A DNA stretch of 64,000 bases from Clostridia bacterium (GCA_045537285.1 JAZSPC010000052.1:1873-65872); one strand, 5' to 3'; numbered from the stretch's first letter, positions 9,737 to 23,697 are shown. Notes: generated by a model not told the origin, from the letters alone. A program made the numbers and translations.

Positions 9737-12700
9737 TTAGCAACCGGTTTTTGGTAATTTTTTTACAATTTCTTTTTCTATAATTATTGTTTCAAAATTA
9801 CTACTATCTCTAACAACATATTCTTCTATATTACCTGATAAATTCGCGTTGTTTACAAGTTTATCATCTTTTTTTACATCATTATCAATTTTTGTATATA
9901 CAATTGGTTTTACTATTGCTTCAAAATCTTTTGAAACTGTTTTATATTCCACTTTTATTTCAGTAATTATTTCTTTATTTTCCAAATTTAGCTCATCAAA
10001 ACTTAAATACTCACTGGTTAAACTATTTACAGTTTTAAATAATCTATAATCATTTTGATTTGTTTTGTAATATATTTCATAATTTATATCTTCGTTATAT
10101 ATTCCTGTTATCATTTTGGTTACTTTACTATCTTCATAAGGAATATATTCTATCCAAGTGAAATCATCTAATTTAGTATTACTTGTGTTTTTAATTTCAA
10201 ATTCGTATTTTATCTCTTCATTTCTTTCTACTGTTTGTTGCCCTCTTATTTCAATGTTTAGGTTTGGAACTACCGCTTCATTTTTTATTTCTAAAACTTT
10301 AACCTCATTATTTTTATCTATATTTACAATAAATTCATTTTTATTTAATATATAATATCGGTTTGTAGCTTTTTCTTTTACTATGTATTTTCCTATTTCT
10401 AAATCTTTTGATATAGCTTTTCCTGATTCATCAGTAATTAAAGTTTCTACTAATTCATTATTAAAATCAAATATTTCAAACTCAACATTTTTTAAACTTT
10501 CTCCTTGTTTAATTTCTAATATTGGGCTATCATTACTGCTCGTTTTTATTATTTGAATCTTACCCCTTATTTTTTCGTTTTCGATTTGTAGTTTTACCAC
10601 TTCATTTGCTTTTATATTTATAGTTATAACTTTTTCATTTAATACATAATTACTATTTGTTTTAACTTCTTTTAAATGATATTTTCCAATCGGTAATCTT
10701 TTACTTATTGCATATCCTTTTTCATTAGTAACCAGCTTATCTACCACTTCATTATTTTTATCTAATATTTCAAATTCCACATTAGGTATTTTTATATTGC
10801 TATCATTTTTATCAGCTTTATATATTTCTACTTGTCCTTTTAATTTTTCATTTTCCACTATAACATTTGTTATTTCATTGTGTTTAACTTCTGCATTAAA
10901 TTCATTTTCTAATAATTCATATCCTTGGTTAGTTTCTATCTCTCGAATTAATATATTTCCAACTCTAATATCCTCAACTATCACGACTCCTTGTTCATTT
11001 GTTTTAGCCTCGTATGTAAATCCGTCTTTATCGGTTATCTTAAACTTAACACCTTCTAATACAATCTCAGGATTATCTTTATCTACTTTTGTTATTTCTA
11101 AACTTCCTTTTTTGTGTTCATTTTTTATAACTAATTCTGTAACCTTTTCATTTTCGACTTGCAATGTATAAATTTCATTATTCATTAGATAATTTGTGTT
11201 AATTCCTAAGTCTACTTCTTTTACTGTATATTCACCTATTAATAACCTTGAAGATGTAGCCTTACCCTTACTATCTGTTACTATTTCGTCTACCACTTTG
11301 TTGTTTATATCTAATATATGAAATTTAACACCTTCAAGTTTTATCTCTTCTTTTTTTGCATCTTGTTTAGTGATTTGTATTTGGCCTTTTTTCTTTTCGT
11401 TTTCTATTACAATATCAGACGTTTTATTCCATTCTACAATAATATCTTTATTTTCACACAAATTGTATTCTTTCTTTGTTACAATTTCTCTTAAAGTATA
11501 TGCACCTGTATTTATATTTTCTATATATGCTTCACCATTTACATCTGTTATTAAATGTGCTATCATTTTTCCATTTGCATCTATTAAATTAAATTCTATT
11601 GCACCTAATGTAATGGTTTTATCATCTTTATCCACTTTTGTAATCTTTAAGTTTCCTTTTTTATGTATGTTTTCAATAACTAGTTCTGTTATCTTTTCAT
11701 CTTCTATTCTTGTTTTATATTCTGTTTCTTCCAATATGTATTCCACATTGTCTCCTAAACTTATTTCTTTAATTGTATATTCTCCAATAGGTAATCTTTT
11801 AGTTATACCTACACCTGCCAAATCAGTTTTAATTTCATCCACAACATTGTTATTACTATCTATTATTTGGAATTCTACACCCTCTAATTTAATTTCATTA
11901 TTTTCTTTATCTTGTTTTGTAATTTGGATTTGCCCTTTTTTCTTTTCATTTTGAATTGTCATTTCTGTTGTTTCATTCCATTTAACCTCTATATTATTAT
12001 CTGTACAAAGATTATAGTTTTCTTTTGTTTTAGTTTCTTTTAATGTATAACTCCCTATATTTATATTATTAATTTGTGCTTCACCATTTATATCTGTAAT
12101 CAAATGTGCAACTTTATTTTTATTTAAATCTATTAAATCAAATTCAATTCCTTCTAGCACCACATTATTTTCATCTTTATCAACTTTTGTTATTTTTAAA
12201 TTTCCTTTTTTATGGGTATTTGTTATAGTTCTACTTACTTCTTTATTGTATTCTGTTTTCATCTCATATACCGTTTCATCTTTTTCATAATTTTCGTTTG
12301 CAGTAAGTTCTCTGATTTTATATGTACCTTGATATATATTTTTAAAAGTAACCACTCCATTTGTATTTGTTTTGCCACTTGTTATATATTCATCATTATT
12401 GTTATACAACCCAAATTCAACATCTTTTATAGGGTTAGAACTTTCTGCATCTTTTTTTACTATCTTTATACTCGATGTGTTTGTAGTCTTATTAAATTCT
12501 GTACTTGATTCATAACTTGCATACGGACTACAAGTTACAGCATAATTTTGCAATGTATTCTTAGGTGCTTGTCCGAAAAATACTGCATTTGTTTTACATT
12601 CCGCTACGACATTAATTTTCCCTGATATATCTTTATCTAATTCTGTTTTGGGTATCATTATCCTAAATTTTTCAGATGGCGAGAATGTATTTTTACTCAC

Positions 12701-13387
12701 TCCTATATTATTTGCTACATAGCTTCCTTCTGGAAAATTTTCTATGCTTTTCACAGTATATTGGCTAATATTTACATCTGCATTTACACTATATTCTTGG
12801 TAATAATAGTTACCATTTTCTATTAAATCTCCTAATTTATTTATGGCTATTACTGGCTCTTTATATTCTGCATTACCTGCTTTTCCTTTTTCTGTTATTT
12901 CATATATTGCATTTATTATTTTTTCACCTCTTACATCAGCTGCTTTATAGAAACTTTTCACATCTCTGCCTAACATAACGCATTTAATTGCATGTTTTGT
13001 TGCAACATATGCATCATCTTCTGTTTCTACACCCAGTTGTTCAATTGTTTTATATGGATATCCGTTTATTACAATGTTGTATAATAATTTATCTGTTAAT
13101 AGTTTATCTGTTGTAACTGTATATGAACCCTCTTCATCAACGCCATTAGCTCCAACTGTTATACAATATGCAGGATACTTTTTCCCATCTTCTTTATATG
13201 AAATATATCCAAATTGAATTTTACGCCATTCTTGTTTTTCTTCGTTATAGTACATAATATGAGTATCTAATTTGTGATCATATATTAAATTTGCTTTTGT
13301 AAGTTCGCTTATGGCATTTACTACTGGCATAAACGCATTCATTATTGTTATTAAAATCGTAAACATTACTATCCATTTTTTTATCAT
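9737..13387 (-). CDS. Large secreted surface adhesin: N-terminal Cys-containing domain, 8 tandem CnaB/SpaA-type domains, C-terminal beta-sandwich and LPKTG
   Basis: 1216 aa. Signal peptide ending in VNA. Eight repeats of the form KKG(N/Q)(L/I)(K/Q)ITK.DKD...LEGVEF.I.D...G....L..G.Y.(L/I)KE. Ends ...KKLPKTGC*. A sortase gene lies immediately upstream. Confidence 0.85.
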   Translation of the reverse strand: MIKKWIVMFTILITIMNAFMPVVNAISELTKANLIYDHKLDTHIMYYNEEKQEWRKIQFGYISYKEDGKKYPAYCITVGANGVDEEGSYTVTTDKLLTDKLLYNIVINGYPYKTIEQLGVETEDDAYVATKHAIKCVMLGRDVKSFYKAADVRGEKIINAIYEITEKGKAGNAEYKEPVIAINKLGDLIENGNYYYQEYSVNADVNISQYTVKSIENFPEGSYVANNIGVSKNTFSPSEKFRIMIPKTELDKDISGKINVVAECKTNAVFFGQAPKNTLQNYAVTCSPYASYESSTEFNKTTNTSSIKIVKKDAESSNPIKDVEFGLYNNNDEYITSGKTNTNGVVTFKNIYQGTYKIRELTANENYEKDETVYEMKTEYNKEVSRTITNTHKKGNLKITKVDKDENNVVLEGIEFDLIDLNKNKVAHLITDINGEAQINNINIGSYTLKETKTKENYNLCTDNNIEVKWNETTEMTIQNEKKKGQIQITKQDKENNEIKLEGVEFQIIDSNNNVVDEIKTDLAGVGITKRLPIGEYTIKEISLGDNVEYILEETEYKTRIEDEKITELVIENIHKKGNLKITKVDKDDKTITLGAIEFNLIDANGKMIAHLITDVNGEAYIENINTGAYTLREIVTKKEYNLCENKDIIVEWNKTSDIVIENEKKKGQIQITKQDAKKEEIKLEGVKFHILDINNKVVDEIVTDSKGKATSSRLLIGEYTVKEVDLGINTNYLMNNEIYTLQVENEKVTELVIKNEHKKGSLEITKVDKDNPEIVLEGVKFKITDKDGFTYEAKTNEQGVVIVEDIRVGNILIREIETNQGYELLENEFNAEVKHNEITNVIVENEKLKGQVEIYKADKNDSNIKIPNVEFEILDKNNEVVDKLVTNEKGYAISKRLPIGKYHLKEVKTNSNYVLNEKVITINIKANEVVKLQIENEKIRGKIQIIKTSSNDSPILEIKQGESLKNVEFEIFDFNNELVETLITDESGKAISKDLEIGKYIVKEKATNRYYILNKNEFIVNIDKNNEVKVLEIKNEAVVPNLNIEIRGQQTVERNEEIKYEFEIKNTSNTKLDDFTWIEYIPYEDSKVTKMITGIYNEDINYEIYYKTNQNDYRLFKTVNSLTSEYLSFDELNLENKEIITEIKVEYKTVSKDFEAIVKPIVYTKIDNDVKKDDKLVNNANLSGNIEEYVVRDSSNFETIIIEKEIVKKLPKTGC
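10274..12475 (-). repeat. Tandem array of 8 CnaB-type domain repeats, including a duplicated A-B two-domain block
   Basis: Domains start at residues 305, 393, 483, 576, 666, 759, 849 and 940. Residues 393-575 and 576-758 are both 183 aa and colinear. The DNA copies have diverged and are not identical. Confidence 0.8.
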
Positions 13388-13400
13388 AAAAATTCCTCCT

Positions 13401-13955
13401 TTATTTTTCTTCTACGGCTTGAACACATAATCTTTGATTTGGTTTATTTGCAATACACGTAATCATAGTTATTCTATTATCTTTTGTTGTTTGCAAATCT
13501 GACCAATCTGTATCATATATAACTTTCTTTTTAGTAACTATATATTTTCTTTCAAAAAACTTTGTTTTATATATTATCTTGTCTCCTTTTTCTAATTCAT
13601 TAAGTCTAGCAAAATACGAAAACTCCGTACCTCTATTATGAGCAGCTAAGCCAATATTTCCTTCATACTTTGCAGTTTCAGGCATATGACCTATGTACTC
13701 CATTAAAATATCTTGTGTGCTACCTTCCTTTACTTTTGCTTTTAACCCTATTTTATCTATTGTTAAAATTCCTAAAATACTTTCATCAATAATTTCTTCG
13801 TTTTCTTCATAAACAATATTTATATAATTCTCATCTGTTTTTACATCTTCTATTTGTGTTAATTCATATTCTTTTTTTGAAGATATAAAGGGTATGCTTA
13901 ATAAAAGTATTGCAATAAAAACAACACCTAAAATATATCTTAATATTTTACGCAT
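13401..13955 (-). CDS. Sortase (small class D/C-like transpeptidase)
   Basis: 184 aa with an N-terminal TM segment. Catalytic His in LAAHNRG, Cys in ITMITC (TLxTC-like), Arg in QRLCVQA. Confidence 0.85.
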   Translation of the reverse strand: MRKILRYILGVVFIAILLLSIPFISSKKEYELTQIEDVKTDENYINIVYEENEEIIDESILGILTIDKIGLKAKVKEGSTQDILMEYIGHMPETAKYEGNIGLAAHNRGTEFSYFARLNELEKGDKIIYKTKFFERKYIVTKKKVIYDTDWSDLQTTKDNRITMITCIANKPNQRLCVQAVEEK

Positions 13956-17253: not shown

Positions 17254-17820
17254 CTATACTCTTTCCATATATTCACCAGTTCTTGTATCTATTTTTATAA
17301 CATCTCCGATGTTTATAAATAATGGAACTGATATTTCATAACCGTTTTCTAGTGTAGCTGGTTTTCCAGATGTTGTAGTTGTATTTCCACTAAATCCTGG
17401 TTCTGTATATGTAACTTCTAATTCTACGAACATTGGTGGTTCAACTGAGAAAACTTTTCCTTTAAAAGATAATACTTTAACACTCATATTTTCTTTTATG
17501 TATTTTAAACTATCTCCTAATTGCTCTTTGTTTAATGGTAATTGTTCATAGCTTTCATTATCCATGAAATAGTATAAATCTCCATCATTGTATAAGTATT
17601 GCATTTCTCTTTTTTCGATTTCTGCACCTTGTAATTTTTCTGATGGGTTAAATGTTTTTTCTAAAACTGCTCCTGTTATAACATTTTTTAATTTTGTTCT
17701 AACAAATGCTGCTCCTTTTCCTGGTTTAACATGTTGGAATTCTACTACTTTATATACTCCATTATCCATTTCAAATGTTGTTCCATTTCTTACATCTCCT
17801 GCCATATATACTTCTGCCAT
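17254..17820 (-). CDS. efp: Elongation factor P
   Basis: 188 aa. Motif [25 protein letters not shown]. Confidence 0.95.
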
Positions 17821-17929
17821 TTGTATCTACCTCCATAATATTATAATTAAATCTTATATATTTTATACTATTTTTGCTTGAAAATCAATATTTTTCTTAA
17901 TATTATTGATATTTTTATTATTTTTAATG

Positions 17930-17970
17930 CAAAACAAAAAGGAAAATGCAAAATTTACACTTTCCTTTTT
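17930..17970 (-). terminator. Terminator after the pilin-like gene, positioned just past the out-of-frame C-terminal segment
   Basis: Minus strand GGAAAGTG-TAAATTTTG-CATTTTCC followed by TTTTTGTTTT, about 30 nt beyond the TAA at 18001. Confidence 0.7.
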
Positions 17971-18000
17971 ATATAAAATTCTTTATATTTTCATAAAACT

Positions 18001-18210
18001 TTAAATTCCAGATGGGTTCATTACTATTGGTCGAACCCCTAATGTATCCACTTTCCCAATTATAAATGATGAATCACCATAAGTTTGTTTCCATAAACAT
18101 TCGGATGGAAACATACCGCATTTCCTTCCAAATGTAAAAATTTCACCTCCCACACTAGCACTATCTTCAAATAGACGCCTCGAAGCAACCCAGTATCTAT
18201 CGCCGTATAT
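18001..18210 (-). pseudogene. Out-of-frame C-terminal domain of the pilin-like protein (69 codons in the +1 frame)
   Basis: Hand translation gives IYGDRYWVASRRLFEDSASVGGEIFTFGRKCGMFPSECLWKQTYGDSSFIIGKVDTLGVRPIVMNPSGI*. This aligns with the C-terminus of the paralog at 54691 (…NYWVSARN…LGVRPVVINPTGI…). Confidence 0.8.
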
Positions 18211-20413
18211 CTAAATACCCCAAACTCTCTATTTGTGTTCGATCCGCGTCTCCGTTATCGTCACTTTCTTTTACTTTCAAGTCTTCAACTTCAAAATACT
18301 TTTTACTAAATTCTGAAAAAGTGTGATATTTTGCTATATCAATACTTCCCCCCACACTTCTTACTCCTTCATTGTCTGTTGCAGTTACTAAACTTTTACA
18401 ATAATTATTTATTGTTGTTATTGCATTATTATATGACGCTATTGCTATGTCATCAGGGTCTGATGTTTTATATCCATCTTTGTTATAGTCAATATCACCT
18501 TCCTCTATTTCTCCATCTCCATTCAAATCATCTGGTATATTGTCGTTGTCTAAATCTAAATATTTTAATAGGTTTCCTTTTATTTCTTGGTCATCGTATC
18601 CTAATGTTAAACTTCCTATTGCACTTTTGCTTATTATTTCTACTAAGTCAATTCTATCTGTTAATATTATCCAATCTTCTGGCGTTCCGTCCATGTTACT
18701 ATCATATTTTACAGTTTGACCTTCTCTACTTTCTGCTTTTACTGTACAAGTTACGCTATAACTTCCACATGTTGCTGTTATTATTGCTTCACCCTTTGAT
18801 TTTATTACTATATTTACACTTGTTCCTGTTCCCTCAATGGTTGCTACATCTTCATTTGACGTTGTCCAAGTTATTTCTCCGTCTATATTTGTTAGTGAAG
18901 CTGTTAACTCCTCTGTTAATTCTTCTCCTTTTTTTATTGTTTTAGTTGTTTCTGTTTTATCTAGTGTAATTTTTCCTTCTAGCTGAGTTATTTTGCATGT
19001 TGCACTATATTCTCCACATGCTACTGTTATTGTTGCTTCTCCTTTTGATTTTATTACAACATTTACACTTGTTCCCGTTCCTTCCGCTACTGCTACACTT
19101 TCATTTGATGTAGTCCAGGTTATTTCTCCTTCCACATTAATTAATGATGCCGTTAATGTTTCTGTTCCTCCTATTTTTCCATTTGTTATCTCTGTTTTAT
19201 CTAGTTTTATACCATCTATTAAAGCTGTTATTTTCTCTTTTTGTCCACTTGGTGATGTTACTTCAAATACATATTCTCCTGCTTCTGTTGTTGCATAACT
19301 TGTTGTTACATAATTTCTAGCAAACCAATCTATATTTTGTGTGCTTCCATCTGGTTTTGTTACTACTACTGGATGTGTTCTTGTATATGCTTGTCCTGCT
19401 ACATATATTAATGCATGTTCTCTTGTAAAGAATTTTATTGATTCAACTCCTACATCTATATTATAATTTAATTGTGCTCGATATTCTTCTAATGTTGTTT
19501 TTCCTGTTATTTCAGTTAATATTGTATCAAATGTTTTCTCATTGTTATACCAGCCTTCTACTGTACTCTTTATCTCTTCTTCTGTTTTTCCTACTAGATC
19601 TGGTAATAACTTTTTAGAATATACTACTTTGGCACCATCGCCATGTACTACATACAAACTTCCAATCCATGCACTTTCTGTAAGAGATTGAATCATAACA
19701 AGCTTAACATATGAAGCTGCTGATGGATATCCATGTTTTTCTAGTACCTTTGCATCTCCTTGTTCTGTTATAAAGTCTTCATATGCCATATCATCAACGT
19801 TAGATTTTATTAATTCATCATATACAACGTCTGGTCCTACTCCTAATAAACTTCCACCTAATGTTAGTATTTGCTCGGCTGTCATACCTGGTAAATATTC
19901 ATATTCTAAATATTCATATCCAAACTTAGTACTATCATATTCTGGTAAACCTACTAAATCTATCCTTAAATTTATGTTATGTCCATTGTTTGTTTTAGAT
20001 ACTGTATAACTTACATCTATATCTTCTGCATCTGTGCTTCCTTCCTCTGCCTTCTCTACTGTAATATTCAAATTTTCATCTACTACTATCTTGTATTTTC
20101 CTTCTTCTGTTATTACTGCATTTCCTTCTATTGTACTTCCTTCAAAATGCTCATTTATTAATCTTAATAACTCTGCTTGGTTTAATGTTCTTCCATTCAT
20201 GAAATATTCTGTTTGTGCTTTCATTTTTACTAATTCTGCATCTTCTTTTAGTTGTGCCATTTTATGATTTTCAGTTGCAGTTATTGCATATGTTATTATT
20301 CCATCTCCTGTTATTTCTTGTATCGCCACAACTGCTAGTATTAATAGCAGTACTACTGTTATTATTAATGCTATTAATGTGATACCTTTTGGTGTTTTAC
20401 TTTTTCCTTTCAT
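18197..20413 (-). CDS. Large surface protein with a prepilin-like N-terminus and two Big_2 (Ig-like) domains; 3' end frameshifted
   Basis: 738 aa in frame. The N-terminus MKGKSKTPKG|ITLIALIITVVLLLILA resembles a class III (type IV pilin) signal but has Ala at +5. Tandem ITWTTSNE..V....GTGTSVN.VIKSKGEA.IT..CG modules. Asp-rich DxDxDG-like segment. Confidence 0.75.
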   Translation of the reverse strand: MKGKSKTPKGITLIALIITVVLLLILAVVAIQEITGDGIITYAITATENHKMAQLKEDAELVKMKAQTEYFMNGRTLNQAELLRLINEHFEGSTIEGNAVITEEGKYKIVVDENLNITVEKAEEGSTDAEDIDVSYTVSKTNNGHNINLRIDLVGLPEYDSTKFGYEYLEYEYLPGMTAEQILTLGGSLLGVGPDVVYDELIKSNVDDMAYEDFITEQGDAKVLEKHGYPSAASYVKLVMIQSLTESAWIGSLYVVHGDGAKVVYSKKLLPDLVGKTEEEIKSTVEGWYNNEKTFDTILTEITGKTTLEEYRAQLNYNIDVGVESIKFFTREHALIYVAGQAYTRTHPVVVTKPDGSTQNIDWFARNYVTTSYATTEAGEYVFEVTSPSGQKEKITALIDGIKLDKTEITNGKIGGTETLTASLINVEGEITWTTSNESVAVAEGTGTSVNVVIKSKGEATITVACGEYSATCKITQLEGKITLDKTETTKTIKKGEELTEELTASLTNIDGEITWTTSNEDVATIEGTGTSVNIVIKSKGEAIITATCGSYSVTCTVKAESREGQTVKYDSNMDGTPEDWIILTDRIDLVEIISKSAIGSLTLGYDDQEIKGNLLKYLDLDNDNIPDDLNGDGEIEEGDIDYNKDGYKTSDPDDIAIASYNNAITTINNYCKSLVTATDNEGVRSVGGSIDIAKYHTFSEFSKKYFEVEDLKVKESDDNGDADRTQIESLGYLDIRR
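18734..19210 (-). repeat. Two tandem Big_2-type Ig-like domain repeats
   Basis: Residues 402-480 and 481-560 are colinear (…LTASL.N..GEITWTTSNE.VA..EGTGTSVN.VIKSKGEA.IT..CG.YS.TC…). Confidence 0.8.
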
Positions 20414-20507
20414 TTTTATTCCTCCTTTGAAAAATTAAATTTATATTTTTTATTTAGATGTTGTTAGGGTTATTTAACATCTTTAACATTAAAAACTTTT
20501 TTAGACG

Positions 20508-20538
20508 CAAAAAAGACAGGTAAATATTTTTACCTATC
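20508..20538 (-). terminator. Intrinsic terminator between the leader ORF and the pilin-like gene
   Basis: Minus strand GATAGGTAAA-AATA-TTTACCTGTC (10-bp stem with one G-U pair) followed by TTTTTTG. Confidence 0.75.
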
Positions 20539-20591
20539 TTTTATTCGTATATTTAATAAAGCATATTTTATGCTTGCTTCTTTTTTATTTA

Positions 20592-20654
20592 TTAAATTAC
20601 CTTGTGTGTGTGTGTGTGTGTGTGTACTCTCTCAACGGTTTCAAGGTTTTGCAT
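20592..20654 (-). CDS. 20-codon leader ORF, MQNLETVERVHTHTHTHKVI
   Basis: AAAGGAG RBS 9 nt upstream of the ATG. The His-Thr run is encoded by the (CA)n tract. Not in the ORF track because it is below the length cut-off. Confidence 0.45.
   Translation of the reverse strand: MQNLETVERVHTHTHTHKVI
20603..20625 (-). repeat. Dinucleotide microsatellite: (TG)11T on the + strand, (AC)11A on the coding strand
   Basis: 23 nt of uninterrupted tgtgtg..., counted directly. Confidence 0.98.
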
Positions 20655-20697
20655 CTTTTATTTCTCCTTTGTTTCTTCTTTTATTTTTATATTTCAA

Positions 20698-20727
20698 ATT
20701 ATATATTTAATAAGTTCGTTTTGTCAA
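20698..20727 (-). promoter_or_regulatory. Near-consensus sigma-A promoter driving the leader ORF, and probably the pilin-like gene
   Basis: Minus strand reads TTGACA - 18 nt - TATAAT. Confidence 0.6.
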
Positions 20728-20763
20728 TATTTTTTATTAAATGTAATACAATTGTAATATTTA

Positions 20764-20946
20764 TTATCTACTAAAAAATATAATTAATGCTCCAATTATT
20801 GCTACTACAAACCCTAAAATTTTAAAACCTGCTGTCGCTTCGTTTTGGTCACCAAAACCAAAAAACTTTTGTGTTAAAAATCTTGCATCAAATATCATAA
20901 TTGTTCCTAACATCGCAATTATTAATCCTATTATTAATTTCCACAT
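20764..20946 (-). CDS. Small two-TM membrane protein, unknown function
   Basis: 60 aa from ATG 20946. The track start at 20955 is a GTG lying inside the AAGGTG RBS. Confidence 0.4.
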   Translation of the reverse strand: MWKLIIGLIIAMLGTIMIFDARFLTQKFFGFGDQNEATAGFKILGFVVAIIGALIIFFSR

Positions 20947-20958
20947 ATTGTTCACCTT

Positions 20959-23007
20959 CTATATTTCAATTCTGTTTTTTAATTTTTCTTCTACCAACTT
21001 CTTTAATCTTATGTTCTTTTCATCTTCTAACAATGGGTCTTCTTGCAAAATTTTTATAGATACACTTTGTACTAATTTTAACATTTTAATATCTTCAAAA
21101 AGATTTGCAATTTTAAACTCTGGAAGTCCATGTTGTTTTGTTCCAAAAAATTCTCCTGAACCTCTTAATTCTAAATCTTTTTCAGATATTATGAAGCCAT
21201 CATTAGTATCTTGCATAACTTGCATTCTTTTTCTTATTACTTCTGAATTTCCTTCATATTTTAGAATACAATATGATTGATACTCTCCTCTACCAACTCT
21301 TCCTCTTAATTGGTGAAGTTGAGCTAGCCCAAATCTTTCTGCATTTTCTATAACCATAATATTTGCATTTGGAATATTTACACCAACTTCGATTACAGTA
21401 GTAGAAATTAATATATCTATTTCTTTGTTTTTGAATTTTTCCATTATTTCATCTTTTTCTTTTGGTCTCATCTTACCATGTAAATATTCTACTTTATATT
21501 CTTTAAATATTTCTGTTTTATATTTTTCTGCAAGTTCTAATACAGATTTTGCATTTATTTCTTCGTTTTCTTCAACAAGTGGACATACAATATATGCTTG
21601 TCTTCCTTCATCTATTTGTTTTTTTATAAAGTTATTTACTCTTTCGTCCATAGATTTTCTTACAGCAAACGTGTCTATTTTCTTTCTGTTTGGTGGAAGT
21701 TCATCTATTATTGATATATCTAAATCGCCATATAGTATTAAGGCAAGTGTTCTTGGAATTGGTGTTGCTGTCATAACTAATACATCTGGATTTTTTCCTT
21801 TTGATGCGATTGTACTTCTTTGTCTTACACCAAATCTATGTTGCTCGTCTGTTACAACTAATCCTAAATTTTTAAACACTACATTTTCTTCTAATAGAGA
21901 ATGTGTTCCTATTAATATATCTATTTCTCCATTTTTTAATCTTTCTAATATATCTTCTTTTTTCTTTTTAGTAGTACTACCAAGTAATAGATCACATCTA
22001 ATACCATGTTTTGAAAGAACTGCTTCAAAACTTTCTAAATGTTGAGTTGCCAAAATTGAAGTTGGTGCCATTATAGCCATTTGATAACCAGACTTTACCG
22101 CTTTATATGCTGCAATTATTGCTACAATTGTTTTACCAGAACCAACATCCCCTTGAAGAAGTCTATTCATAGCTTTTTCAGATTCCATATCTTTATCTAT
22201 TTCTTCTAAAACTCTAAGTTGTGCTTTTGTAAGTTTAAATGGTAATTCATTTATTAATTCAGACATTTTTACATCTTTATTAAAACATATTCCTGTTTCA
22301 TCATTTTTGTATTTATTCTTTAAACTTAAAAGTAATAACTGCATTGTCAAAAGTTCTTCAAACACCAATCTATTTCTAGCTTTATTAAAATCCGAAAACT
22401 CGCTTGGAAAATGTATCTTATTTATTGCATCTTTTAAACTCAATAGTTTATACTCTTCTAGCAAATACTCTGGCATTGTTTCATCTAATTGGTCTCTTGT
22501 AAGTTCTAAACCATTTTCAATTATCTGCCTAATTGTATTTTGAGAAAGATTATATGTTACAGGATATAGTGGTATTATTTTTCCTGTATTTTTAGATTTT
22601 TCTTCTTCATCATATACAGGAGAAATCATCTCAGTCATCCCTATTTTTCTATTTATTTTCCCATAGAATTTATACTTTTTACCCATTTGAAACATATTTT
22701 TTAAATATGACTGATTATACCATACAAGTTCGCAAGAGTCTGTTTCGTCTCTTACTATTAACTTATATATAGTCATATTTTTTCTGTATGTTCTTATCTC
22801 ACGCATTTTAGAAGTAACTATTGCTTCTATTAAAACTTCTTCACCATCAACAGTATCAGCAATTTTTTTAGGTTTACTTCTATCTTCATAATCACGTGGG
22901 TAATATGTAATTAAATCCTCCAAATTATATATATTTAATTTATTTAAGAGTTTAACTCTGTTTGGTCCAACTCCTTTAACAAATTTAACATCATCAGATA
23001 AATTCAT
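20959..23007 (-). CDS. recG: ATP-dependent DNA helicase RecG
   Basis: 682 aa. Wedge/OB N-terminus, Walker [28 protein letters not shown]. Confidence 0.95.
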
Positions 23008-23119
23008 ATATTTCTCCTTAACATAATTTATTGTATCATACCAAGTATTTTTTTACAATATTTTATTCTTTATTGGACTTATTCTTTTATTTATGTTAAA
23101 ATATATTTAGAGTAAATTT

Positions 23120-23194
<75 letters not shown>

Positions 23195-23237
23195 TTTATG
23201 ATAAATCGGACTTTTTAGTTCGATTTTTTAACTTCAT

Positions 23238-23266
23238 TTGAAAATTTATGTTAATAATGATATAAT
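23238..23266 (+). promoter_or_regulatory. Promoter for the 113-aa ORF
   Basis: TTGAAA - 17 nt - TATAAT with an extended -10 (TGATATAAT). Confidence 0.55.
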
Positions 23267-23355
23267 ATTTTTGTTATCATTCGTAGCTATACGAACTACA
23301 ACAAGAATAGCAAGTTTATAGTTTCTCTCAAAACAATTGTTAGGAGGAAAAAACA

Positions 23356-23697
23356 ATGGCAAATGAATTTTTAGCAATATCAGATGGAACTTTTACTTTG
23401 TCAGAAACCGAAAATAAAAATCAATTTTATTTTTATCGGAATGATGGAGAAGTCTTATCTAATATAGGCAGAGAACCAATGGATTTGTATCACGCATATA
23501 TTATGCGAAAGATGATGAATGGTGAAATAACTGAGATAGTTATGAATAACATCTATTCAGAAACATCTGACGATGGCAAATGCATAAGATTAACCATCTC
23601 TGACGTTAGTAAAAAAACATCAAGTACCAATTCAACTGTCAACAGCGCAAAAAAGCCTAATTTTTTTAAGCGTTTGTTTCATAAAATTTGGGGCTAA
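23356..23697 (+). CDS. Hypothetical protein
   Basis: 113 aa. AGGAGG RBS. Ser/Thr-rich basic C-terminus. No motif recognised. Confidence 0.45.
   Translation: MANEFLAISDGTFTLSETENKNQFYFYRNDGEVLSNIGREPMDLYHAYIMRKMMNGEITEIVMNNIYSETSDDGKCIRLTISDVSKKTSSTNSTVNSAKKPNFFKRLFHKIWG

Follow-up and report, generated by a model that had tools for sequence, protein, structure and literature searches.

We examined a 64,000-nucleotide (nt) stretch of DNA from Clostridia bacterium (GCA_045537285.1, JAZSPC010000052.1:1873-65872), referred to throughout as the window, in which the gene for a 738-residue protein is preceded by a short candidate regulatory leader containing an uninterrupted dinucleotide repeat. 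The source is a low-GC Clostridia metagenome-assembled genome (MAG), and the detection of tmRNA and tRNAs identified the window, which has a GC content of 27%, as bacterial. The local order is recG, the gene for a 57-residue membrane protein, the leader, the gene for the 738-residue protein and efp. Coordinates refer to the whole stretch; the leader, its terminator and the gene for the 738-residue protein all lie on the minus strand. The features of the locus, starting from the leader promoter, are as follows.

20727-20722 and 20703-20698, minus strand: sigma-70-type leader promoter, TTGACA and TATAAT with an 18-nt spacer, a 12/12 match
20670-20664, minus strand: leader ribosome-binding site (RBS) AAAGGAG, 9 nt 5' of the ATG at 20654, read directly from the sequence
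20654-20592, minus strand: leader open reading frame (ORF) as assembled, 20 residues, MQNLETVERVHTHTHTHKVI followed by a stop; the short frame, predicted to be OFF
20654-20530, minus strand: long alternative leader frame, 40 residues, entered with one repeat unit fewer or two more; predicted to be ON
20625-20603, minus strand: uninterrupted repeat (AC)11A (TRF), the proposed slippage site that would set the leader frame
20583..20602, minus strand: stop-codon cluster AGGTAATTTAATAAATAAAA 3' of the repeat, whose stops at 20599-20597 and 20594-20592 shut two of the three frames
20575-20559, minus strand: small 7-base-pair (bp) hairpin AAGCATA-AAA-TATGCTT inside the long frame; weak, -5.1 kcal/mol, z -2.0
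20541-20509, minus strand: intrinsic terminator and putative attenuator, a 14-bp hairpin with a 4-nt loop at 20541-20512, then T6 to 20509
20457-20481, minus strand: hairpin GATGTT-N13-AACATC between the terminator and the RBS of the gene, z -6.6
20413-18197, minus strand: gene for the 738-residue protein, the proposed regulated gene, with RBS AAAGGAGG at 20428-20421 and ATG at 20413
17972-17934, minus strand: terminator closing the transcription unit of that gene, -18.2 kcal/mol, z -8.1

A preliminary description of this locus had named the promoter, the RBS and ATG of the leader, its ORF, the repeat, the 7-bp hairpin, the terminator and the RBS and ATG of the downstream gene, and we found each of them at the position given. 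The leader promoter is the sole 12/12 match returned by a consensus scan of 17500-23500. The terminator folds at -15.0 kcal/mol (z -6.9); the automated terminator scan did not list it, probably because its A/T-extended stem absorbs part of the T run. Between terminator and gene (20508-20414), where the preliminary description saw no convincing promoter, consensus scanning likewise detected no promoter-like site of at least 9/12. The hairpin at 20457-20481 overlaps a decayed copy of a proximal promoter known from the two most closely related loci, designated L004 and L012: these carry TTGACA-17-TACAAT at a place where the window has a 9-nt deletion and TAACAA. The same hairpin is also present in L012 (L012:1299-1322).

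The repeat lies wholly within the leader ORF, and the length of its unit is not a multiple of three. Tracts such as (AC)11A had a chance expectation of 0.00 in the window (100 shuffles), which bears out the earlier remark that the tract is unexpected in AT-rich DNA. As assembled, (AC)11 yields the 20-residue leader, with a stop 9 nt past the repeat. One additional unit yields a 19-residue leader ending in HTHTR, with a stop 4 nt past the repeat, and the loss of one unit or the gain of two yields the 40-residue leader ending in QGNLINKKEASIKYALLNIRIKDR, whose TAA at 20532-20530 lies within the 5' arm of the terminator. This recomputation agrees with the original frame arithmetic for one unit fewer, one more and two more. 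The stop-codon cluster leaves one frame open, and the short frames stop 50-55 nt ahead of the hairpin while the stop of the long frame is inside it. The leader ORF ends 179 nt 5' of the ATG of the gene, with the terminator in between, and no frame joins the two.

By analogy, we consider it likely that the window carries a phase-variable transcription attenuator acting by the mechanism of the pil1 and pil3 loci of Streptococcus gallolyticus, and we commit to this mechanism because the architecture is the same as that demonstrated by Danne et al. 2014 (PMC3894217). In that species, GCAGA repeats lie in a leader-peptide ORF with a stem-loop terminator downstream (Danne et al. 2014, PMC3894217). 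Out-of-frame changes in the repeat lengthen the leader peptide so that its stop falls within or after the hairpin, and the translating ribosome prevents termination; leaders that end at least 28 nt before the hairpin are low expressers, or OFF (PMC3894217). The proof came from a start-codon mutant, three inserted stop codons and deletion of the terminator (PMC3894217).

Transferred to the window, the strong promoter at 20727 would drive a leader transcript holding a translated mini-ORF with (AC)11A, followed by the intrinsic terminator at 20541-20509 and by a surface-protein gene predicted to lack its own promoter. The assembled frame and one of the other two would halt the ribosome 50-55 nt before the hairpin, the terminator would form and the gene would be OFF or basal. 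Slipped-strand mispairing during replication that removed one AC unit or added two would direct the ribosome into the only open frame, in which it would enter the 5' arm of the hairpin and reach the stop at 20532-20530. The hairpin would then be blocked, RNA polymerase would read through and the gene would be ON. The assembled (AC)11A allele would accordingly correspond to OFF or basal expression, and (AC)10 or (AC)13 to ON. The anatomy, the frame arithmetic and their conservation in the homologous leaders are established here; that the repeat slips, that the leader is translated and that this affects termination are steps that we infer. The small hairpin at 20575-20559 might, speculatively, act as an RNA polymerase pause site.

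The resemblance to pil1 and pil3 extends to the same parts in the same order, namely a leader ORF fully containing a non-triplet repeat, an intrinsic terminator and a gene for a surface structure. In both systems the short frames end well before the hairpin (50-55 nt in the window, against the limit of at least 28 nt) and the long frame ends in or after it, and both belong to gut-associated Firmicutes. The differences are equally clear. The repeat unit is a dinucleotide (AC, or AG and TA in relatives) instead of the pentanucleotide GCAGA, which is repeated 13-22 times; in the window two frames are predicted to be OFF and one ON, the reverse of S. gallolyticus; and the gene controlled would encode a Big_2-domain protein whose signal resembles that of prepilins, whereas in S. 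gallolyticus it is a sortase-assembled pilus operon. The clostridial system is, moreover, a family spread across many species and paralogues of uncultured Clostridia, known here from sequence alone. We saw no homology to the pil1 leader, judged from the units AC and GCAGA, with the S. gallolyticus sequence itself not aligned, and the window leader is on this comparison best regarded as an analogue, not a homologue.

To place the leader in a wider context, we turned to homologous loci. L004 and L012, which carry the same module upstream of related genes, came from a BLAST search of the region against loci fetched for other reasons, and a scan of GTDB representative genomes with the N-terminus of the protein family matched 313 places, from which 80 loci were retrieved. 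Twelve further complete leaders of the same build were found (L004, L012, L032, L040, L042, L043, L048, L054, L057, L061, L066 and L096), giving 13 with the window, from different species or loci; L059 is an additional partial copy, cut by a contig end. The shared build consists of a promoter, an RBS and ATG, a short ORF with a dinucleotide repeat, a terminator and a surface-protein gene. The comparison of related intergenic regions that the preliminary description had proposed revealed, in these 13 leaders, the pattern that its hypothesis predicts. The repeat occupies the same position across the homologous leaders, as (AC)5-18, (AG)8-13 or (TA)7-10, and the numbers of units outside the (AC)11A loci are these.

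AC repeats: L043 7.5; L096 11; L059 16.5; L056 18; L032 5
AG repeats: L061 8; L042 11; L057 11; L079 12; L040 13
TA repeats: L066 7; L054 9; L048 10

L096 and L032, which are close relatives, differ in having 11 and 5 units. The flanks are homologous whatever the unit, with an CTTGAGGCTGT motif (peptide ..SLEAV) on the 5' side and TTTA(A/G)TAAATAAA on the 3' side, to which the stop-codon cluster of the window is related. Since both the unit and its number vary between leaders that share flanks, what has been conserved is repetitiveness, not the sequence or the peptide. A dinucleotide repeat was present within 400 nt upstream of 11 of 69 family genes (each with at least 300 nt of upstream sequence, 30.9 kb in total); the remaining 397 kb contained only three, all likewise in front of genes.

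Each of the 13 leaders has one, and only one, frame that runs open from repeat to hairpin, the other two being shut earlier. Eleven of these open frames have their stop within the hairpin, and those of L048 and L040 overshoot it by 8 or 32 nt. In 10 leaders neither of the other frames extends more than 17 nt beyond the repeat, the longer one running 37 nt in L048 and L066; these closed frames end 21-65 nt before the hairpin in every leader except L066, whose assembled frame ends 1 nt before it. Dinucleotide shuffling of the individual spacers gave a lone open frame with a probability of 0.05-0.53 per locus, and the product over 10 lineages was about 1.6e-6, a rough figure because the leaders share ancestry and the lineages are not fully independent. 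Beyond the repeat, no frame encodes a peptide that the family conserves, and the repeat itself encodes HT, RE or YI. The lack of conservation of the long-frame peptide indicates that it is the openness of the frame that is selected: selection acts on this openness, not on the peptide product.

All 13 leaders have a Shine-Dalgarno-like RBS sequence and an ATG, a promoter of 10-12/12 at the same place and a terminator hairpin with a T run, the hairpins persisting despite sequence turnover with folding energies of -12 to -25.5 kcal/mol. An alignment of the terminators of nine leaders revealed a common 13-pair basal stem, four pairs of which show compensatory changes; the upper stems are wholly different between leaders, yet each folds. 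No site of at least 9/12 lies between terminator and gene in 9 of the 13 leaders, the window among them. The leader frame of the window is kept in L004 and L012, a 6-nt deletion in L012 being frame-preserving in the alignment. The small hairpin is nearly invariant across the same three loci, and no counterpart was recognised in the more distant leaders.

A translation-independent explanation would place the activity of the repeat in the DNA itself, as a non-B element (Z-DNA for AC, H-DNA for AG, a cruciform for TA) acting through supercoiling or by blocking polymerase. All three repeat units of the family can indeed form non-B DNA, and at one locus, L064, TA tracts are positioned upstream of a -35 element, outside any leader ORF. 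Such an element would leave unexplained the conserved RBS and ATG, the arrangement of two short frames and one long, the stop within the hairpin, and the in-frame fusions described below, and we regard it as the most improbable of the readings considered. The L064 tracts, (TA)13 at L064:2223-2248 and (TA)12 at L064:4688-4711, each lie about 20 nt upstream of TTGAAA-N17-TATAAT in front of two tandem family genes, and may represent a second, promoter-level type of switch in the family.

Several observations weigh against a phase-variable attenuator in the window. The foremost is that (AC)11A is found in the window, in L004 and L104, and in L012 and L101-L103 (the last three being strains 99.9-100% identical), that is, at three paralogous loci in six assemblies; length variation was not seen in the lineage of the window at the level of these six assemblies, although a metagenome consensus hides minority repeat alleles. 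The flanks of the window, L004 and L012 loci diverge by 17-26%, and a core of about 100 nt around the repeat is nearly invariant, a pattern that suggests gene conversion or strong selection. L004 and L012 carry, between terminator and gene, the proximal promoter introduced above, an 11/12 match, so that the attenuator cannot be the sole control there and the leader could form a unit of its own. Of the 13 leaders, 11 were assembled with a stop far ahead of the hairpin, L054 was assembled in the long frame, and in L066 just 1 nt separates the stop from the hairpin. This proportion is compatible with a 2:1 expectation (binomial P ~0.14), and the ON frame is rarely seen. From a more general standpoint, transcription outruns translation in Bacillus subtilis ('runaway transcription'), which disfavours antitermination by a ribosome; ribosome-dependent attenuators do work in Firmicutes, the S. 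gallolyticus case included. The original proposal that repeat length switches the locus between termination and read-through is supported by the architecture and by the frame pattern in 13 leaders, and not by length variation in the lineage.

The invariance of (AC)11A across these six assemblies and three loci would be expected of a conventional attenuator of fixed length, in which the His/Thr codons or the CA-rich RNA would sense tRNA charging or bind a protein, and the alternating His/Thr run recalls the his and thr leader peptides. The downstream gene, however, encodes a Big_2 surface protein and is not a biosynthetic operon, and homologous leaders span 5-18 units and have AG (Arg/Glu) or TA (Tyr/Ile) runs at the same site. 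No antiterminator pairing shared between leaders was seen when the flanks were compared by eye, not systematically, and no Rfam family matches the region: nothing reached gathering thresholds on the leader, and matches with E up to 10 were only noise. We consider a fixed-length attenuator very unlikely, and we rejected its His/Thr-sensing form because the downstream gene is not biosynthetic and the leader exists in RE and YI versions. A conserved antiterminator helix, in which the motif preceding the repeat would pair with the terminator's 5' arm, was also sought by eye and dropped, GCUGU occurring in both in some leaders and not in the lineage of the window.

The near-invariant core and the proximal promoter of L004 and L012 bear on a different possibility, already raised in the preliminary description, that the leader is a small peptide or RNA gene in its own right, perhaps itself phase-variable, that merely adjoins surface-protein genes and exerts no control over them. 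The leader does have its own strong promoter, RBS and terminator; in L004 and L012 a near-consensus promoter for the downstream gene follows the terminator; and a functional RNA or peptide would account for a core that stays nearly constant in the window, L004 and L012 amid diverging flanks. Against this, the post-repeat peptide is unconserved whatever the frame, and the residues encoded by the repeat switch between HT, RE and YI. Thirteen of the 14 unfused leaders (the partial L059 included) precede a gene of one protein family, and 9 of the 13 complete ones stand before a gene for which we found no other promoter. In the fused loci L056 and L079 the leader is part of the gene, and the single hairpin-reaching frame in 13 of 13 leaders would be left unexplained. 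A stand-alone gene is in our judgement less likely than an attenuator, and unlikely overall. The frame layout or the fused forms are explained by none of these three rivals, and we retain the phase-variable attenuator as the preferred reading.

The fused loci deserve separate description. In L056 and L079 (L056:2920-3060, L079:2889-3040), the same leader start and repeat are joined to the family gene ahead of its KG|ITL site, which ties the repeat to the expression of that gene. The (AC)18 fusion of L056 is in frame as assembled, and the (AG)12 fusion of L079, out of frame, would require an additional unit to be in frame. These in-ORF versions look as if they were derived from, or ancestral to, the attenuator form. 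In-ORF translational phase variation fits L056 and L079; for the window it was ruled out, the repeat ORF being separate from the gene. Two further candidates for the window were set aside: a repeat switch in the promoter spacer or upstream of the promoter, as the (AC)11A tract begins 73 nt downstream of the -10 hexamer, and an invertible element, since the inverted pairs present are all short, AT-rich and imperfect (73-88% complementary) and none makes a convincing flanking repeat.

Other members of the family add detail on its distribution. At L048:4807-5090, a complete (TA)10 leader precedes the gene for a different membrane-anchored protein (MNDIKVKKINKKTIVIISIVLVAIIL...) that is not of the KGITL family, which shows that the cassette can stand before genes of more than one family. 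At L059:1-38, the contig ends 5 nt from the (AC)16.5 tract, an assembly break that could reflect length heterogeneity in the sample. The leader is absent at L001 and L002, which encode other homologues of the 738-residue protein, and at L105, L106 and L107, which were reached via the L012 protein. At L107:190-345, on an AT-rich contig, two GC-rich palindromes (GGGGCAGGGCTCCGACCCTGCCC and a variant) surround the TTGACA-17-TACAAT promoter of a family gene and look like REP-type elements. Exact DNA pattern scans with AGAGTACAC-N{4,34}-ACAAGGTAATTTAATAAATA and with CACACACAAGGTAATTTAATAAATA had no match in metagenome, genome and viral contig collections, which evidently do not include these contigs, even though L012 derives from a JGI sample. 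Exact look-ups of the 738-residue protein, of the identical entry P0001 and of the 57-residue membrane protein returned no contig, and the plasmid and phage collections contained no DNA similar to the region.

The product of the downstream gene had been described as a pilin-like adhesin. Its N-terminus is prepilin-like (KGITLIALIITVVLLLILA; KG|ITLIALIITVVLLLILA) and is followed by two Big_2 domains, Big_2 being the only Pfam match, with none to N_methyl. The sequence KG|ITLIALIIT resembles the motif G|FTLxE, but has Ala in place of Glu5, and prepilin models match the protein only at E ~0.05-0.1, far below their cut-offs. The term 'pilin-like' is to be read with this qualification. The C-terminal domain is common to the 380-394-residue proteins of L004 and L012.

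Regarding the surroundings of the locus, proteins identical or nearly identical to the EF-P and RecG of the window occur in many ENA and JGI metagenome assemblies, and the EF-P cluster bears the database name 'Clostridia bacterium'. The recG and efp blocks are not adjacent in relatives, and the leader and the gene for the 738-residue protein therefore occupy a variable spot. A 125-nt stretch at 17801-17925, which leads into efp, matches relatives at 94-98% identity and covers the final 64 nt of their spoIIIAA, the spacer and the beginning of efp. In the window no spoIIIAA gene precedes it, and recG (20764-23007 region) and efp are neighbours in no relative seen. These observations point to either a rearrangement or a mis-join of the MAG around the leader and the gene for the 738-residue protein. 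Beyond the recG stop codon at 20959-20961, the frame continues into a small ORF that has its own ATG at 20937 and encodes 57 residues with two hydrophobic stretches (20764-20961). We rejected stop-codon read-through or recoding after recG, given that the small ORF has its own ATG and corresponds to a separate gene of 62-68 residues in relatives. Two ORFs of 1216 and 184 residues at 9737-13955 match in position the TED/SpaA-domain protein and the sortase of L003, L005 and L008; by position only, this would be a sortase-assembled pilus locus near the leader.

Known switches of other kinds share single elements with the arrangement in the window. The pyrBI attenuator of Escherichia coli is a physiological switch that depends on UTP-dependent polymerase pausing. 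There too, the leader ORF extends through the terminator hairpin and a closely following ribosome prevents the hairpin from forming; the proposed switch in the window would differ in being a heritable change of frame at the repeat. In Clostridioides difficile, cwpV is controlled by a DNA inversion that a site-specific recombinase carries out between inverted repeats. The likeness lies in a phase-variable clostridial surface protein governed by whether an intrinsic terminator in the 5' leader forms, and the difference in the inverted repeats, of which the window has no convincing flanking pair. Phase variation through repeats inside the gene is familiar from Neisseria opa (CTCTT, in the signal-peptide region) and Haemophilus lic1 (CAAT), where slippage near the 5' end of the gene for a surface protein shifts its reading frame. 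L056 and L079 have this construction, with the same leader start, whereas in the window the repeat ORF is separate from the gene, with a terminator between them.

Our search of the full-text literature returned only the S. gallolyticus system and the reviews citing it, with nothing for Clostridia or for dinucleotide units. The earlier statement that no leader-peptide attenuator of this kind was known in a clostridial-type genome consequently stands for Clostridia and has to be qualified for the design itself, for which S. gallolyticus provides a precedent. The leader family is apparently undescribed in Clostridia; its mechanism is not new in kind.

A wider reading is possible, and we offer it tentatively. 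The promoter, repeat-bearing leader ORF and terminator may form a portable modular cassette that has spread over paralogues and species of uncultured low-GC gut and rumen Clostridia, that swaps AC, AG and TA units while keeping the frame layout, and that interconverts with the in-ORF forms seen in L056 and L079. Its copies would give a multi-locus, combinatorial ON/OFF surface repertoire hidden by consensus MAGs. That three diverged paralogues have the very same tract of 11.5 units would then be the outcome of gene conversion, or of selection that favours a particular rate of switching.

These observations carry a warning for metagenomics, in that consensus MAGs show only the majority state of such genes, which is mostly OFF. 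The proposed switch is testable on existing data, since a 150-nt metatranscriptome read is long enough to cover both the repeat allele and the terminator. In the literature searched, the attenuator with a repeat in its leader is known from a single species, and an independent clostridial family would make the design a recurrent one. Collectively, the leaders described here provide concrete candidate contingency loci for organisms that have not yet been grown.

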